A stretch of 64,000 nucleotides of DNA from Trypanosoma brucei (GCA_000002445.1 CH464491.1:2912001-2976000), one strand, 5' to 3'. Shown: positions 10,356-61,300, counted from the first letter of the stretch. Translations and numbers: made by a program. Notes: generated by a model from the sequence alone, not told the origin.

Positions 10356-10527
10356 GAAAGAAAGGGTGTCGCTGACGCAACCTTCAGTTGCGTGGTACTG
10401 ATGATGGTTTAATGCTGTTGAACTAATTTATCACCTTAGTGACTCATGTTTGGTTGCTGTAAACTAATAAGTGAGTTTGTGTTGCATATGCCCCACCCTC
10501 CCCTATAGCTTTTATCTCGCTCGTTAG

Positions 10528-10869
10528 ATGGGTGGGCCACCAAGGAAGAGAGAGCGTGAAGGGGAAGCTCTTAAGCCAAAGTCTAAAGAGGAACAATTGC
10601 CTATAAAAAACGAATGCACCTTGGACAGGCGCGAGGGAAAGCAAATTGTCGCTGAGAAATGGAGTGAGGTGGTTGTTGACGACAATGAAAGTCAGGAACG
10701 CTCAAACGAAAGTGTATCCGAATCTCAGGTGTATGACACTGAGGAGGAGCTACTGGCGGCAGGTGAGGACCTGAGCGGCGATGCTCTAAAAGATTTCCTG
10801 CGTAAGAACTTCGTCGACTTCATCGATGAGAAGGTGGCCCGTGTCGGTGATCTGGATCTAATGAATTGA
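10528..10869 (+). CDS. Hypothetical small acidic protein
   Basis: 113-aa ORF with an ATG start. Basic N-terminus followed by a highly acidic Ser/Glu-rich body. No recognisable domain. Confidence 0.3.
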   Translation: MGGPPRKREREGEALKPKSKEEQLPIKNECTLDRREGKQIVAEKWSEVVVDDNESQERSNESVSESQVYDTEEELLAAGEDLSGDALKDFLRKNFVDFIDEKVARVGDLDLMN

Positions 10870-18812: not shown

Positions 18813-19979
18813 CTGTGGTCGTGGTGGTTTATTGGGGTATTGTTTGGTTGCCAGTTGTCTTGTTCCGTTCGCATCGACAGAAGGGTACAGGAGCTGGACT
18901 GCGGTTTCGTCGTGCTGTCATTATTGTTATTATCTCTACGTCCTCCGTGCTTTTTGTGCCGTTTTCGTTTTCGTTGCCTTTTTTTTTTACATATATCGAG
19001 AAACCTAATCTTTCAACTTCCCAGTTTTGGCAGAGGGATGTCTCCTTCCAGGTAGCGCCCAGTGCCGCAGTCAGGGGGGGGGGACGGGGAGAGAAGTCTG
19101 GTGGATATTGGTCATGGTATGCACAGGGAGGCAGGGCAAGAGGTCGAAACGTTAAATACCATATGAGCGCTTGTGCGTAGCGTGTGTGGGTTTAGGAAGG
19201 TATGTGATGGGAACAGGAAAATGAAACTGCGGGAAATCGGCAAGTATATGGCGGATGCCAACACTTTCCACTGGGGTGGACGATGTACATGCTCATGCTG
19301 ACGCAAGTTCATGGTTCTTACGTGTGCGTTTATGTTTTTCGTGGTGAATAAGAGGTTGTTTTCGCTTCGTTACAGAGCGGTAGAGAAAGGGAGTGGGGTT
19401 GGCGCAATGGTAGGGAGGGTGGGGGAGGAACGGTCACAGTGCAGTCCATGCCCTGAGCTTATTCGTATCGTGTTGCTAATCACTACCGCATTCCCCTTTT
19501 TGTGTACTTTGTCGCGCGGTTCAGGTATTATTTATTGGTAGGCACACTTGCTCCATTACGTTTTACCCTCGTTGGTTTTTGTTATTTCTCAACCACAAAG
19601 ATTTTGCGGTGCGGAGAGAAACCGAAAGCAAGTCTCGTATTGTCTCCACTTGTACCTTGTATACCTCCACCCTGTGGCATCATCCTCCGCTTTCTTTCCA
19701 CTTATTTTCCTGCTTTCGTACAAGGTTTTTGTTGCGCTTGCCCGTCCACCCACCTTTCCACCGTGTTCTTGCCTCAAGTGTTTTTTTTCTGGAATCATAA
19801 CGTTATTGTCGCTATCACGTGCTATTCGGCCGCTTTGATTCTTTCTACTGCGGCTCCCCTCTCGTTCCAGTGGTTTCACGTCTAGCAGACCCTTTCTAGG
19901 ATTCGGTGCTTTGAGTGTAGAAGGCCAACGTCGGGGGGCAAAAGGGCGGTGGGTTGTGTTGAGCGCTGCCACCGTCTAC

Positions 19980-20825: not shown

Positions 20826-21359
20826 ATGTCGGTGAAGGTTTGGGTAAAATGCAGTGGGATGACAGACGACGAGGCACTTGGAATCCAAGTTCTGTCGGAT
20901 GGGACGGCATTGGACGTCGTTGAGGCCTGCAAAGGGGTGTTCCGGTGGCCGAAGTTATCTACCGCAGCGTTGTGCACTGAAGGCGGTGAGATCGTTCCAC
21001 CTTCCTCGGCAGCGGCATCCCTCACAAATCTCACACTCCAAATCGTTCAGTTTCCGCCGCTGGCGTCGGTTCTGAAGCGCAATGCGTCCCATAGACCGCT
21101 CTCAACTGGTCACAGAAAGGACCAAGTGCCAACGACTAGTACACCCTCCATCCTTTGTTTCCAAAATGTTACTATTCCCCGTCGTGGGAAAAGGAGGATG
21201 AACCCCAATGCTAAAAAACGAGAAGCAGTGGGTACCCCGACAAGGATTGCCCGACTATGGGATAGTTTGCCTGTGGCGGAGCTTGCATTTGTCAGTGGGA
21301 GCGACCCGCGCCCCGCGCAAGCACTTTGCGCCTGGAGCTGCCGGAGTACTATCTTTTGA
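20826..21359 (+). CDS. Hypothetical protein (weak; may be a 5' fragment or UTR)
   Basis: 177-aa ORF with an ATG start. Only the first ~40 aa look globular ('VKVWVKCSGMTDDEALGIQVL'); the rest is low-complexity. An overlapping ATG-less ORF follows at 21326-21829, which could indicate a frameshift. Confidence 0.2.
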   Translation: MSVKVWVKCSGMTDDEALGIQVLSDGTALDVVEACKGVFRWPKLSTAALCTEGGEIVPPSSAAASLTNLTLQIVQFPPLASVLKRNASHRPLSTGHRKDQVPTTSTPSILCFQNVTIPRRGKRRMNPNAKKREAVGTPTRIARLWDSLPVAELAFVSGSDPRPAQALCAWSCRSTIF

Positions 21360-50463: not shown

Positions 50464-51243
50464 TGCCACCGTGTTTCTTAACCATGCTTTTTTTTAATTC
50501 TCCCCTTCCTGTCACTGTATCATTACGAACGAAGAAAAGGGGAAAGTGCCGCACATGTATTTTTATGAAATAAGAACCTATGTCATATAGCAGTAAGCCG
50601 TGGTAGCACCATGCCACGGAAATAAGTTTCACTATATGTAAGCGCTAACACACATATGCGCGCGAAAAGCAAAAAAAAAAAAAGAAAAAAAGTAGACGAG
50701 GAGAATTTTTAAAAAGGGTATATTTATTTAAGCATGTACCTAAGAGCGCACGGGCCAGACAAAGCATGAGTGCCAACACAGTTATCCGCACACACGCATC
50801 AGAAGGTACTGTTCTCCATTTTCTTCCATCAGGAAGCATGGTGTAATTATTTCTCACGAAAGTTGTACGACTAGTAGTACCCTTTTTCTCCCTTTTCTCT
50901 GTGGCTTTTTTAAAAGCTTCCTTTATTTTCTTTTTCCTTTTGAGCTAACTCTACCTCCGCAGCCGCCAGCGTTCTCAATGCAGTTTTGCGTGTAAGTCAC
51001 TTGCCTCTTGGCCAAGTAGACTCGATATGCAACACCAGGAGCGCCGCACGCATAACAATTTGCGTTTACGCGTCTACGTTAGTGTGCAGATGTTATGATA
51101 CTTTTGTTTTAACTTTGCTCCGCGTCCTTGGCGTTGGTATTGTTGCAATCTTTCATCGGCCAGTGCCTGTATATTTCAATATCCTCCTGCTTTTTATCCT
51201 TGCTACTGCCTCTGAAAACAAGGAATATCTGTCTCTTTGAAGG

Positions 51244-53274
51244 ATGACATACGAAGGCGCCATTGGTATCGACCTCGGTACGACGTACTCGTGCGTTGGT
51301 GTGTGGCAGAACGAACGTGTGGAAATCATTGCAAATGACCAGGGTAACCGTACGACGCCGTCCTACGTTGCTTTCGTCAATAATGAGGTTCTTGTTGGCG
51401 ATGCGGCGAAGAACCACGCCGCTCGTGGCTCGAATGGTGTTATATTCGACGCGAAACGGCTGATCGGACGGAAGTTCTCCGACTCTGTCGTGCAGTCCGA
51501 CATGAAGCACTGGCCCTTCAAGGTCGAGGAGGGCGAGAAAGGTGGTGCTGTGATGAGGGTAGAGCATCTTGGAGAGGGGATGTTACTGCAGCCCGAGCAA
51601 ATATCTGCCCGTGTCCTTGCGTACCTGAAGTCTTGTGCGGAGTCGTATCTTGGGAAGCAGGTGGCTAAGGCTGTCGTAACAGTGCCTGCATACTTCAACG
51701 ACTCGCAGCGCCAGGCAACGAAGGACGCGGGGACGATTGCTGGTCTGGAGGTGCTGCGCATCATCAACGAGCCAACGGCTGCTGCAATTGCCTATGGCCT
51801 GGACAAGGCTGATGAGGGGAAGGAACGCAACGTTTTGGTGTTTGACTTTGGAGGTGGAACGTTTGACGTCTCAATTATTTCAGTAAGCGGCGGTGTTTTC
51901 GAGGTGAAAGCCACAAATGGTGACACCCACCTTGGTGGAGAGGATGTGGACGCCGCACTGCTGGAGCACGCACTTGCTGATATAAGGAACCGTTATGGAA
52001 TAGAACAGGGCTCTCTGTCCCAAAAGATGCTATCCAAGCTGCGTTCACGGTGTGAGGAAGTGAAGCGAGTACTGTCACACTCGACAGTGGGGGAAATTGC
52101 ACTCGACGGGCTGCTTCCCGACGGCGAGGAATACGTGCTCAAGCTAACGCGAGCGAGGTTGGAAGAGCTATGCACGAAAATTTTTGCTCGCTGTTTGAGT
52201 GTGGTACAGAGGGCGTTGAAGGACGCTTCAATGAAGGTTGAGGATATTGAGGATGTTGTGCTTGTCGGGGGAAGTTCTCGGATTCCTGCTGTGCAGGCTC
52301 AGTTAAGGGAGCTATTCAGAGGTAAGCAACTCTGCAGCAGTGTGCACCCTGACGAGGCAGTGGCGTATGGGGCTGCAGTGCAGGCGCACGTACTTTCCGG
52401 TGGATATGGGGAGAGCTCTAGGACAGCAGGTATAGTGCTTCTGGATGTTGTGCCCCTTTCAATCGGCGTTGAAGTGGACGACGGTAAGTTTGATGTGATA
52501 ATTCGTCGGAACACAACCATTCCATACCTTGCGACCAAGGAGTACAGCACTGTGGATGACAATCAGAGTGAAGTGGAGATACAGGTTTTCGAAGGTGAGC
52601 GCCCCCTCACGCGTCACAACCACAGGCTAGGCTCCTTTGTTCTTGACGGTATTACCCCGGCAAAGCACGGTGAACCGACTATCACCGTTACTTTTAGTGT
52701 TGACGCCGACGGGATCCTGACCGTTACAGCCGCAGAAGAACTCGGGAGCGTAACAAAAACACTTGTTGTGGAGAACTCGGAGCGACTTACCAGTGAGGAA
52801 GTACAGAAGATGATTGAAGTTGCACAAAAGTTTGCCTTAACGGACGCCACCGCTCTGGCGAGGATGGAGGCCACCGAGAGGCTCACGCAGTGGTTTGACC
52901 GACTCGAAGCTGTAATGGAGACCGTCCCGCAACCATACTCAGAGAAGCTTCAAAAGCGTATTGCCTTTCTTCCGCACGGGAAAGAGTGGGTCGGCACACA
53001 GCTTCATACGTACACTGACGCGGCGTCGATAGAGGCGAAAGTAGCGAAGATTGAACGGCTTGCAAAGAGGGCCCTGAAATCGGCGCGTCGTGAAGGAAAG
53101 GATGGATGGGCACCGGGCAATGAGGACAATGGAAGCGGTGATGACAACGACGGTGACGATAACAGTGATGAGGACGACGAGCTCCAAAGGGGGAGGGGCG
53201 TGACAGAGGGATCGGGGAGGCCCCCGATAAGGAAACGCGACCGCATAGAGGCTATCAACGCAAACACAGAGTAA
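51244..53274 (+). CDS. HSP70.c: Atypical HSP70 with an acidic C-terminal tail (HSP70.c-like)
   Basis: Canonical HSP70 N-terminal signatures ('[12 protein letters not shown]', 'DLGGGTFD'-type '[10 protein letters not shown]', '[10 protein letters not shown]'), but a diverged substrate-binding domain and the tail '[15 protein letters not shown]'. No EEVD. Confidence 0.85.
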
Positions 53275-58353: not shown

Positions 58354-59036
58354 TGAGAATGAGATGAAGAAAGACAAGACGCAAAAACCGTCTCCATATA
58401 ATAAACATAACAGTACCTTCTAGAACATGTGAAGAGAGGGACACGCTACTTCAAGGGGTGCTGCGTTATTGTTTAGCAGACCCAATACCATGACGATAGG
58501 ACATCACGATAACCTTGAAACAAAACTTAACCGACGACCTGTATAACAGCACACAATTAAAATGCAAAAAATAATCGGGACGACTGTCACTGCTGTACAG
58601 TGCGAAACATCACTTAAACAACACCTTTTGCAACCCATAAAGTAGGAACAGAGCAGTAAATGCGAAAGTACCATTAAAACATTACAAAAAACACTTTGGC
58701 AAGCAGATACTCGTTTACCTCGCAGGTTTAACGGGGAAATTTCAAAAGAAAAAAATTCCAGCGGTAAAAAAGGAAAAATAAATAAACACTGAAATCATAA
58801 TAAACCAAAAAAACTGAAAAAATAAAATTATCTCAACGAACAAAAAAGGATTAATTAATAAACACAAATTTTCCTTCGAATTGCAATACCTCCCCAGAAA
58901 GGATTGCGTACTCCCATACTTGCACTCCTGCTCTTCCTTCCTATTTGCATTTGCCCACGTGCCCCACGCGTGCATCACATAAGCATCAAGGAACAAGCAA
59001 CAGCTATAAAACAAGGAATATCTGCCTCTTTGAAGG

Positions 59037-61022
59037 ATGACATACGAAGGCGCCATTGGTATCGACCTCGGTACGACGTACTCGTGCGTTGGTGTGTGGC
59101 AGAACGAACGTGTGGAAATCATTGCAAATGACCAGGGTAACCGTACGACGCCGTCCTACGTTGCCTTCACGGACTCTGAGCGCCTGATCGGCGATGCGGC
59201 GAAGAACCAGGTGGCGATGAACCCTACGAACACGGTGTTCGACGCGAAACGGCTGATCGGACGGAAGTTCTCCGACTCTGTCGTGCAGTCCGACATGAAG
59301 CACTGGCCCTTCAAGGTCGTCACCAAGGGCGACGACAAGCCAGTGATCCAGGTACAGTTCCGCGGTGAGACGAAAACCTTCAATCCTGAGGAGATCAGTT
59401 CCATGGTACTATTGAAGATGAAGGAGGTTGCGGAGTCGTATCTTGGGAAGCAGGTGGCTAAGGCTGTCGTAACAGTGCCTGCATACTTCAACGACTCGCA
59501 GCGCCAGGCAACGAAGGACGCGGGGACGATTGCTGGTCTGGAGGTGCTGCGCATCATCAACGAGCCAACGGCTGCTGCAATTGCCTATGGCCTGGACAAG
59601 GCTGATGAGGGGAAGGAACGCAACGTGCTCATCTTCGATCTTGGTGGTGGCACCTTCGATGTGACATTGCTGACGATTGACGGCGGCATCTTCGAGGTGA
59701 AAGCCACAAATGGTGACACCCACCTTGGTGGAGAAGACTTCGACAATCGCCTTGTGGCTCACTTTACCGAGGAATTCAAGCGCAAGAACAAGGGCAAGGA
59801 TCTCTCATCGAACTTGCGCGCCCTTCGCCGCCTTCGTACGGCTTGTGAGCGCGCCAAGCGCACACTTTCTTCCGCTGCGCAGGCAACCATCGAGATCGAT
59901 GCACTCTTCGAAAACATTGACTTCCAGGCGACCATTACCCGTGCTCGTTTCGAGGAACTGTGCGGTGACCTGTTCCGTGGTACATTGCAACCCGTAGAGC
60001 GTGTGCTGCAGGATGCCAAGATGGACAAACGCGCCGTGCACGATGTGGTCCTGGTTGGTGGTTCCACCCGTATCCCCAAGGTGATGCAGCTTGTGTCTGA
60101 CTTTTTCGGTGGCAAGGAGCTTAACAAGAGCATCAACCCCGACGAGGCAGTGGCCTACGGCGCTGCTGTACAAGCTTTCATCTTGACCGGTGGTAAGAGC
60201 AAGCAAACGGAAGGTCTCCTCCTTCTGGATGTCGCCCCGCTTACGCTCGGCATCGAGACGGCAGGTGGCGTGATGACGGCACTGATCAAGCGCAACACGA
60301 CGATCCCCACCAAAAAGAGCCAAATCTTCTCCACATACTCAGACAATCAGCCCGGTGTGCACATTCAGGTCTTTGAGGGTGAGCGTACCATGACGAAGGA
60401 CTGCCATCTCTTGGGCACCTTCGATCTCTCTGGAATCCCCCCGGCACCCCGCGGCGTGCCACAGATAGAAGTGACCTTCGACCTAGACGCTAATGGTATT
60501 CTTAGCGTTTCTGCGGAGGAGAAGGGCACTGGCAAGCGCAACCAGATTGTCATCACAAACGACAAGGGTCGCCTGAGCAAGGCTGATATCGAACGCATGG
60601 TGTCTGATGCTGCGAAGTATGAGGCTGAGGATAAGGCGCAGCGTGAGCGCATTGATGCTAAGAACGGTCTTGAGAACTACGCCTTCTCGATGAAGAACAC
60701 TATCAATGACCCCAACGTTGCTGGCAAGCTTGACGACGCCGACAAGAACGCTGTCACCACTGCCGTGGAGGAGGCACTGCGATGGCTGAACGACAACCAG
60801 GAGGCCAGTTTGGATGAATACAACCACCGCCAGAAGGAGCTCGAAGGCGTGTGTGCTCCCATCTTATCAAAGATGTACCAGGGCATGGGCGGTGGCGACG
60901 CGGCTGGCGGTATGCCCGGAGGTATGCCCGGGGTATGCCCGGTGGTATGCCCGGAGGAATGGGTGGTGGGATGGGAGGCGCTGCGGCATCGTCCGGGCCT
61001 AAAGTCGAGGAGGTTGACTAAG
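59037..61022 (+). CDS. HSP70: Cytosolic HSP70 (canonical). As given, the reading frame is interrupted by a 1-nt deletion in the C-terminal GGMP repeat (~60931); the intact frame ends in EEVD at 61022
   Basis: Full HSP70 signature set: '[12 protein letters not shown]', '[12 protein letters not shown]', '[14 protein letters not shown]', the SBD and GGMP repeats. The '...PKVEEVD*' ending is in the +1 frame relative to the upstream ORF. The uncorrected ORF runs to 61109 with a nonsense tail. Confidence 0.85.
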
Positions 61023-61300
61023 TTCCCAGGTGTATTTCGGACCGGTGCTGCAGTCGTCTCATTGTCTACGGTGATGGTCCGCCGCCACATTTTCTCTTCG
61101 TCTCTGTAGCATTTAGGAACCCTCGTTACGGGAAAGATGCGTGACACATTGATGCTACTACTATTATTAATACTCTACTACTATTATTATTATTTTTATT
61201 TTAGTTCCCCACCACCGTCATTATTATTACCATTATTATTATCAATATTACCATTATTGTTTTTAATGTAATCATATATGTATATATTCTTTAGTTGTTT

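Follow-up and report, generated by a model that had tools for sequence, protein, structure and literature searches.

Segmental gene conversion from the HSP70 array into the diverged HSP70.c gene of Trypanosoma brucei, and related tracts in other trypanosomatids

Segmental gene conversion involving the cognate hsp70 gene and the hsp70 array of Trypanosoma brucei was reported by Lee, Polvere and Van der Ploeg in 1990 (Mol Biochem Parasitol 41:213-220; pmid 2398917). Judged by the title of that paper, and with the identity of the gene traced through the SwissProt entry HSP7C_TRYBB, the case described below concerns the same locus and the same gene pair and leads to the same conclusion. Conversion of T. 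brucei HSP70.c has been known since 1990, and its detection here is a rediscovery. Beyond what that title conveys, the present comparison adds a polarity derived from orthologues, a shared SNP, a mosaic in T. congolense, and tracts in Leishmania and Phytomonas; as a comparison across lineages it is a modest addition to a known case. Papers on HSP70.c published in 2014 and 2016 make no mention of conversion, and the literature searched, with incomplete coverage, gave no report of the T. congolense mosaic, the Phytomonas tract or the Leishmania tracts.

Several other T. brucei genes have been shaped in a comparable way. The phosphoglycerate kinase genes are chimaeric (Le Blancq et al. 1988), and partial conversions were found in 21 of 47 tandem arrays (Jackson 2007, PMC1855330). 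As there, conversion at HSP70.c is partial and biased, involves neighbouring paralogues within one polycistronic unit, and leaves a chimaeric gene. In those cases the partners are far more alike and belong to one array, whereas the acceptor HSP70.c is diverged, functionally distinct and outside the array, and its tract is in five pieces. The GAF-A domain of TbrPDEB1, as outlined in PMC2689650, was moved to TbrPDEB2 by gene conversion. That pair, as outlined there, resembles the present one in organism, in consisting of adjacent paralogues a few kb apart, and in that only the 5′ part of the gene is affected; it differs in that TbrPDEB2 has one domain-sized tract that is polymorphic between the alleles of one strain, while the tracts of HSP70.c are several, short and fixed throughout the T. 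brucei group.

The inducible Hsp70 genes of mammals, Drosophila and nematodes are said to undergo concerted evolution (Kudla 2004; Nikolaidis and Nei 2004), reportedly with homogenization by conversion and a raised GC3 in the converted sequence, both of which have counterparts here. In those animals it is reportedly whole, near-identical inducible copies that are homogenized; in HSP70.c the overwriting affects a divergent paralogue and is confined to its conserved core segments. The mosaic VSG genes of T. brucei are built by segmental gene conversion, in the account given in PMC3708902. On that account, they too are patchworks of short tracts between diverged relatives in the same organism, presumably made with the same recombination machinery, though VSG mosaics arise within an infection, under immune selection and at an expression site, and that of HSP70.c is stable, carried in the germline at a housekeeping locus. 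The cross-lineage set described below is a clean natural case of conversion in which the paralogues are old and differ in function.

Two paralogues and the runs they share

The window, a 64,000-nt stretch of T. brucei DNA (GCA_000002445.1 CH464491.1:2912001-2976000) that most likely belongs to chromosome 11, contains two HSP70-type genes on one strand (Table 1). Kinetoplastid HSP70.c is an atypical cytosolic Hsp70 that lacks the C-terminal EEVD and has an acidic C-terminal region (Burger et al. 2014). An acidic C-terminal region, the Hsp70 fold and the absence of EEVD are all found in the product of the upstream gene. This protein is identical to a T. equiperdum database entry (P0001), to which Pfam PF00012 is assigned, and is 99% identical to HSP7C_TRYBB (P0004, "Heat shock cognate HSP70 protein"), the four differing residues among its 676 all being outside the blocks described below. 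Outside those blocks its best matches are HSP70.c orthologues, and the gene order around it is kept in T. cruzi, T. theileri, Leishmania, Phytomonas and Leptomonas. By its sequence and setting, the gene is trypanosomatid HSP70.c, an anciently diverged paralogue of HSP70.

Between HSP70.c and the HSP70 tandem array, which follows it downstream in the same orientation, are 5.8 kb and three unrelated genes. Orthologous loci were fetched from T. b. gambiense, two T. equiperdum assemblies, T. cruzi, T. theileri, four Leishmania species, Phytomonas and Leptomonas, and at every one but that of T. theileri an HSP70 array is found 4-9 kb downstream of HSP70.c. The T. cruzi reference for HSP70 was the gene at 21254 of its locus (L002); another T. 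cruzi protein, P0087, was set aside as a different cytosolic paralogue. A first-pass annotation, made from the T. brucei sequence alone, had placed HSP70 at 59037-61022. The start holds; the reading frame of that ATG continues past 61022, where the EEVD stop sits in a different frame, the window being short of one T at 60931/60932. At one T. equiperdum locus (L009) the tandem HSP70 copies encode 661 aa and end in EEVD.

Base-by-base comparison of HSP70.c and HSP70 at a constant offset of 7,793 nt, with which a repeat search agrees, yields five runs of identity (Table 1). The first-pass annotation had recognized identity blocks between the diverged paralogues at this offset. All four of the blocks it named are present, and a fifth run, the mini-block, had gone unlisted. 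Its bounds for Block B are exact. The other three need small corrections: Block A, put at 51214-51372, does have its one mismatch within slightly narrower limits; Block C, put at 51637-51833, has the correct right end and begins one nucleotide earlier; Block D, put at 51898-51951, has the correct start and is perfect only as far as 51941, with 6 of the next 10 positions (51942-51951) matching.

Table 1. Coordinates, in the window, of the two genes, the identity runs and the segments between them
Feature	Position	Strand	Description
HSP70.c CDS, acceptor gene	51244..53274	+	ORF reading; 676 aa, without EEVD
Canonical HSP70, donor	59037..61109	+	ORF in frame with its own ATG, 690 aa; single collapsed copy of a tandem array; equals the TREU927 annotation (P0044)
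Block A	51215..51371	+	157 nt, matching 59008-59164 save for a mismatch at 51232; 29 nt of 5′ UTR and 128 nt of CDS, codons 1-42
Mini-block	51397..51416	+	20 nt, matching 59190-59209; codons 52-57; not significant taken alone
Block B	51445..51526	+	82 nt, perfect match to 59238-59319; codons 68-94; holds the strain-variable synonymous site 51459 / 59252
Block C	51636..51833	+	198 nt, matching 59429-59626; codons 132-196
Block D	51898..51941	+	44 nt, matching 59691-59734; codons 219-232
Largest unconverted segment	51527..51635	+	codons 95-131; HSP70.c ancestry
Remaining unconverted segments	51372-51396, 51417-51444, 51834-51897	+	between runs
Donor region in HSP70 with five matching runs	59008..59734	+	identity map

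Inside the runs HSP70.c and HSP70 differ at 0 of 150 degenerate codons for the same amino acid and at 0 of 82 four-fold sites. Beyond the runs the count is 127 of 183 such codons, and four-fold sites are saturated (a proportion of about 0.75 different). The sequence separating the runs is 30-58% identical between the two genes. One of the separating segments, 51834-51897, serves as an internal control: its protein is conserved, and nearly all of its codons are synonymously different. When synonymous states were shuffled among codons for the same amino acid (5,000 permutations), no permutation reached the observed run, the maximum being 27 codons as against the 56-66 observed (P<1/5000); column shuffling gives longest runs of 17.6 nt on average and 36 nt at most, as against the 198 nt observed. 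The pattern is far beyond chance.

The sole mismatch in Block A is 12 nt before the ATG and divides the block into perfect runs of 51215-51231 and 51233-51371. Of the 29 nt immediately upstream of the ATG 28 are identical, and similarity then ends abruptly. Conversion mediated by RNA was considered and gained no support; on a by-eye reading, the 5′ edge of Block A at −29 is not at an obvious splice-acceptor position upstream of HSP70. By blastn, the 3′ two-thirds of both genes have just one match, of 31 nt at 87% identity (52346-52376), which is not significant, and a blastn search over the window gave no further copies and no further similarity between the loci.

Ancestry of the runs and direction of transfer

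Within the blocks the T. brucei HSP70.c protein has 90-96% identity to HSP70 from other species, as against 63-73% to its own HSP70.c orthologues. Outside the blocks the relation flips, with 29-44% identity to HSP70 as against 46-68% to HSP70.c orthologues, and the protein encoded between blocks has 39% identity to T. brucei HSP70 as against 55-68% to HSP70.c orthologues. T. brucei HSP70 itself keeps 90-96% identity in the blocks to its counterparts in other genera. The HSP70.c proteins of other species have signature residues and an insertion of 7-8 aa in the block-C region, and T. brucei HSP70.c is without both. The blocks match HSP70 in GC3 (0.69), and the sequence between them has a GC3 of 0.48. 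Blocks of HSP70 ancestry thus lie inside an HSP70.c gene, and HSP70 is therefore the donor. Such phylogenetic incongruence is what would be expected of conversion from HSP70 into HSP70.c, and the transfer, judging from its outcome, appears to have been non-reciprocal.

The favored reading, with a probability of roughly nine in ten, is that in African trypanosomes the first ~730 nt of HSP70.c (−29 to +698) have been overwritten piecewise from the HSP70 array by interlocus gene conversion that is ongoing or very recent. The proposal of recurrent short-tract conversion in the first-pass annotation is backed by the synonymous identity, by the HSP70 ancestry of the runs and by tract boundaries that are specific to lineages.

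By the mechanism envisaged, non-reciprocal homologous recombination would copy segments of the HSP70 array into HSP70.c. Breaks in HSP70.c would be repaired with the multi-copy array as template, and probably as non-crossovers, because the three intervening genes would be lost if direct repeats such as these crossed over. Tracts would tend to begin and end where the genes were already most alike, and an identical tract, once formed, would promote more exchange at the same place. Selection may then remove those tracts that overwrite HSP70.c-specific segments, and so preserve one mosaic in both T. brucei and T. congolense.

Tracts in other trypanosomatids and the placement of their edges

Phytomonas has a perfect 149-nt tract between its HSP70.c and HSP70. 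Its left edge is that of T. brucei Block C (position +394 of the HSP70 CDS in Phytomonas, +393 in T. brucei, which is where similarity begins), and its right edge is 48 nt earlier. The Phytomonas tract is judged to be independent of the T. brucei mosaic. Short tracts occur in the block-C region of three of the four Leishmania species compared: two in L. infantum, of 57 and 53 nt (P about 6e-4), and related ones with different edges in L. tarentolae and L. enriettii. In L. utingensis the region of the Leishmania tract retains HSP70.c-type codons and is not homogenized. Within a 17-codon Leishmania tract several synonymous sites vary among species and are identical in both paralogues of each species; the sites flanking this tract follow orthology. 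They supply, for Leishmania, the kind of between-species comparison called for in the first-pass annotation. T. cruzi has no tract, its longest run of identical codons being 7 (P=0.08), and Leptomonas pyrrhocoris has none between HSP70.c and its own HSP70. Boundaries that differ among lineages had been predicted for conversion in the first-pass annotation, and they are seen across T. brucei, Phytomonas and Leishmania.

The positions of the tracts have some relation to the similarity that would have been available for pairing. In species whose genes are unconverted, the segments corresponding to the T. brucei tracts are 60-81% identical in nucleotides between the two paralogues, as against 27-62% for most of the gaps, and tract placement fits homology-limited exchange. 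Conversion might recur with boundaries that are purely mechanistic, heteroduplex stopping and mismatch repair rejecting exchange where divergence is high, with no part for selection. The location of the blocks on these more similar segments favors that account, as does the near coincidence of the Block C left edge in T. brucei and Phytomonas at the point where similarity starts, but it is on the whole unlikely. The right edges differ among lineages, and codons 197-218, between Blocks C and D, are as similar in unconverted species (67-73% in nucleotides) as Block C, yet are unconverted and of HSP70.c type in both T. brucei and T. congolense, with agreement at 21 of 22 residues. Since these codons have remained unconverted despite their similarity, homology alone does not explain the boundaries. 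They point to probable selection for residues specific to HSP70.c, and the boundaries look to be partly homology-limited and partly selection-limited.

Repeated exchange, remaining alternatives and consequences

The same mosaic is present in five independent T. brucei-group sequences: the window, T. b. gambiense DAL972, two T. equiperdum assemblies and the product of the gene cloned in 1990. There are small differences among them. Block A is perfect across its 157 nt in T. equiperdum and T. b. gambiense, the mismatch at 51232 being private to the window, and the mini-block is 16 nt in the other strains (N57S). At the synonymous site +216 of the CDS (51459 / 59252), the nucleotides in HSP70.c and HSP70, respectively, are G and G in the window, A and A at the T. 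equiperdum locus L009 (in both array copies), and G and A in T. b. gambiense. This pattern requires at least one transfer, or a parallel mutation, after the strains separated; it is suggestive, as a single SNP with two of the arrays represented by collapsed consensus. A shared SNP could be mimicked at +216 if an assembly had been polished with array reads mapped to the wrong gene.

Beyond the T. brucei group, African trypanosomes were compared at the protein level only, with T. congolense. Of the 154 block residues of its HSP70.c protein, 150 agree with T. brucei HSP70; between the blocks the protein is of HSP70.c type, and in the rest of HSP70.c the two species have ~75% protein identity. A mosaic common to two well-diverged species, together with zero synonymous divergence in the T. 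brucei blocks, means that exchange has been repeated.

In yeast recombination one event can leave a discontinuous tract. The five pieces could have come from one event long ago, in an ancestor common to African trypanosomes, by way of a long heteroduplex with patchy mismatch repair, or by repair synthesis with template switching, with no later exchange. That the block pattern of T. brucei and T. congolense is the same at the protein level is in keeping with such an origin. A lone event is, all the same, very improbable. The ~75% identity between these species elsewhere implies many synonymous differences in the ~500 nt concerned, and the coding blocks show none; sites +216, −12 and +170 vary among strains and alter tract length; and the species-specific variants common to both paralogues in Leishmania indicate repeated exchange at the homologous place. 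It may have been a single event that founded the mosaic; on these comparisons it cannot have been the last.

An alternative raised in the first-pass annotation was nucleotide-level constraint. By this account mRNA structure, a translational element or extreme codon optimization alone would keep the blocks identical, with no exchange between the genes. The blocks do fall on those parts of the Hsp70 nucleotide-binding domain that are most conserved, and the GC3 of HSP70 is high. The expectation that the blocks would be identical across species was, however, not borne out: orthologues are as different inside the blocks as between them. Block codons for the same amino acid differ from those of T. 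brucei HSP70 at 71 of 144 positions in T. cruzi, 55 of 142 in L. infantum, 62 of 135 in Phytomonas and 57 of 142 in Leptomonas, that is at 39-49%, and the nucleotides are therefore not constrained. Moreover, T. cruzi and Leptomonas HSP70.c are without identity runs to their own HSP70, and the block residues of T. brucei HSP70.c are those of HSP70 and not of HSP70.c. Constraint in place of exchange has hardly any claim to be the explanation. An artefact of assembly or consensus, in which reads from the HSP70 array were merged into single-copy HSP70.c, might be imagined from the collapse of the array to one copy with a 1-nt frameshift in the window and from the break of the T. equiperdum OVI contig within HSP70, but it is scarcely credible: four independent assemblies of differing technologies have the same blocks, as does the product of the gene that was cloned and sequenced in 1990, and in T. 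congolense the protein shows this mosaic against a background that has diverged.

For gene conversion from HSP70 into HSP70.c the comparisons allow a wider proposal, which is rather better than an even bet. Conversion would be recurrent, having occurred independently in African trypanosomes, Phytomonas and several Leishmania lineages in the same core of the nucleotide-binding domain, with T. cruzi, Leptomonas and one Viannia-type Leishmania spared. The five-piece African mosaic would have been held since before the split of T. brucei and T. congolense and refreshed continually, with selection policing which parts are swappable. If so, the HSP70.c locus would amount to a natural domain-swap map of two chaperones.

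Recent papers on HSP70.c present it as a chaperone in its own right. About 150 of its first 232 residues are nevertheless HSP70 sequence, a fact that those papers leave unmentioned and that bears on phylogenies, on the design of antibodies and peptides, on the assignment of proteomic peptides and on read mapping. Reagents derived from the first 700 nt of HSP70 will also match HSP70.c, and a published sgRNA for N-terminal tagging of HSP70 has an exact match in HSP70.c, PAM included.

Conversion tracts and the lost insertion in HSP70.c

After the 'YGLG' motif, all the other HSP70.c orthologues examined carry a 7–8 amino acid glycine/serine-rich insertion that is absent from African-trypanosome HSP70.c, and it is a conversion tract that deleted the insertion there. 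The site lies within block C, one of the runs of identity between HSP70.c and canonical HSP70 (Table). The corresponding perfect tract of Phytomonas sp. Hart1 arose independently; outside it, codons specifying the same amino acid are identical between that organism's HSP70.c and HSP70 in only 51% of cases. The short HSP70-to-HSP70.c tracts of Leishmania have lineage-specific edges, and in L. infantum, L. tarentolae and L. enriettii species-specific synonymous variants are common to both paralogues; in L. utingensis the tract region is mostly unconverted. Within the T. brucei group, block B contains a synonymous G/A site (CDS +216; window 51459 and 59252) that is G/G across the paralogues in the window, A/A in T. 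equiperdum L009 and split G/A in T. b. gambiense. Variation between strains extends to the tract-edge sites 51232, in the 5′ UTR, and 51413 (N57S). In T. theileri, HSP70.c is of HSP70.c type along its whole length.

Coordinates of features at the T. brucei and related loci
Feature	Locus	Position	Remarks
Position of lost HSP70.c insertion	window	block C, 51636-51833	protein residues about 187-190
HSP70.c/HSP70 perfect tract, Phytomonas sp. Hart1	L007	10406-10554 and 16519-16667	149 nt; counterpart of block C region
Short HSP70-to-HSP70.c tracts, Leishmania	L004 (L. infantum)	10414-10470 / 19156-19212; 10502-10554 / 19244-19296	further Leishmania loci compared: L010, L011, L012
HSP70 single copy and gamma-tubulin-complex gene directly after it	window	59037-61277	
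HSP70 tandem 661-aa copies, T. equiperdum	L009	17793-22031	copies identical across 1,800 nt
Long ORFs antisense to Hsp70 genes	window	51109-51567, 51363-51767, 58742-59122, 59156-59560	(-)
Antisense ORF called as gene, Leishmania	L010	18216-20696	(-); Pfam PF10712 (NAD-GH)

HSP70 array and the 3′ end of the window copy

Given the tandem copies of T. equiperdum and the eight HSP70 copies reported for Lister 427 (PMC11858757), the solitary HSP70 of the window means that the array is collapsed there. At 60931-60932, in the GGMP repeat near its 3′ end, this copy lacks one T (CCCGG-GGTATG), the same site being CCCGGTGGTATG in T. equiperdum (L009) and T. b. gambiense (L006). Its ORF consequently extends as far as 61109, and the 690-aa product lacks EEVD; the usual stop, after ...GPKVEEVD at 61022, is in a different frame. 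The 690-aa form is also that of the database annotation for TREU927, P0044. The version lacking T probably represents either an error of the collapsed array or a single defective copy. T. theileri has no HSP70 gene in the interval from the 639-aa gene to the gamma-tubulin-complex gene (L003 17211-22121), so in that species the array does not occupy the syntenic location. An older L. infantum JPCM5 assembly has an additional HSP70 copy, a 736-aa call, upstream of HSP70.c (L005 2219-4429), where the newer assembly (L004) has different genes; this extra copy is probably an array misassembly.

Antisense ORFs and shared reagent targets

The long ORFs opposite the Hsp70 genes are duplicated via the identity blocks, and one in Leishmania has been called as a gene. 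They are interpreted here as spurious rather than as true genes. The sgRNA CTTTGAAGGATGACATACGA (PAM AGG), published for N-terminal tagging of HSP70 (PMC11858757), has an exact match in HSP70.c as well (window 51235-51254 and 59028-59047), and the 25-nt homology arms of the design match the HSP70.c locus with no more than one mismatch. Reagents directed to the 5′ end of HSP70 may also target HSP70.c.
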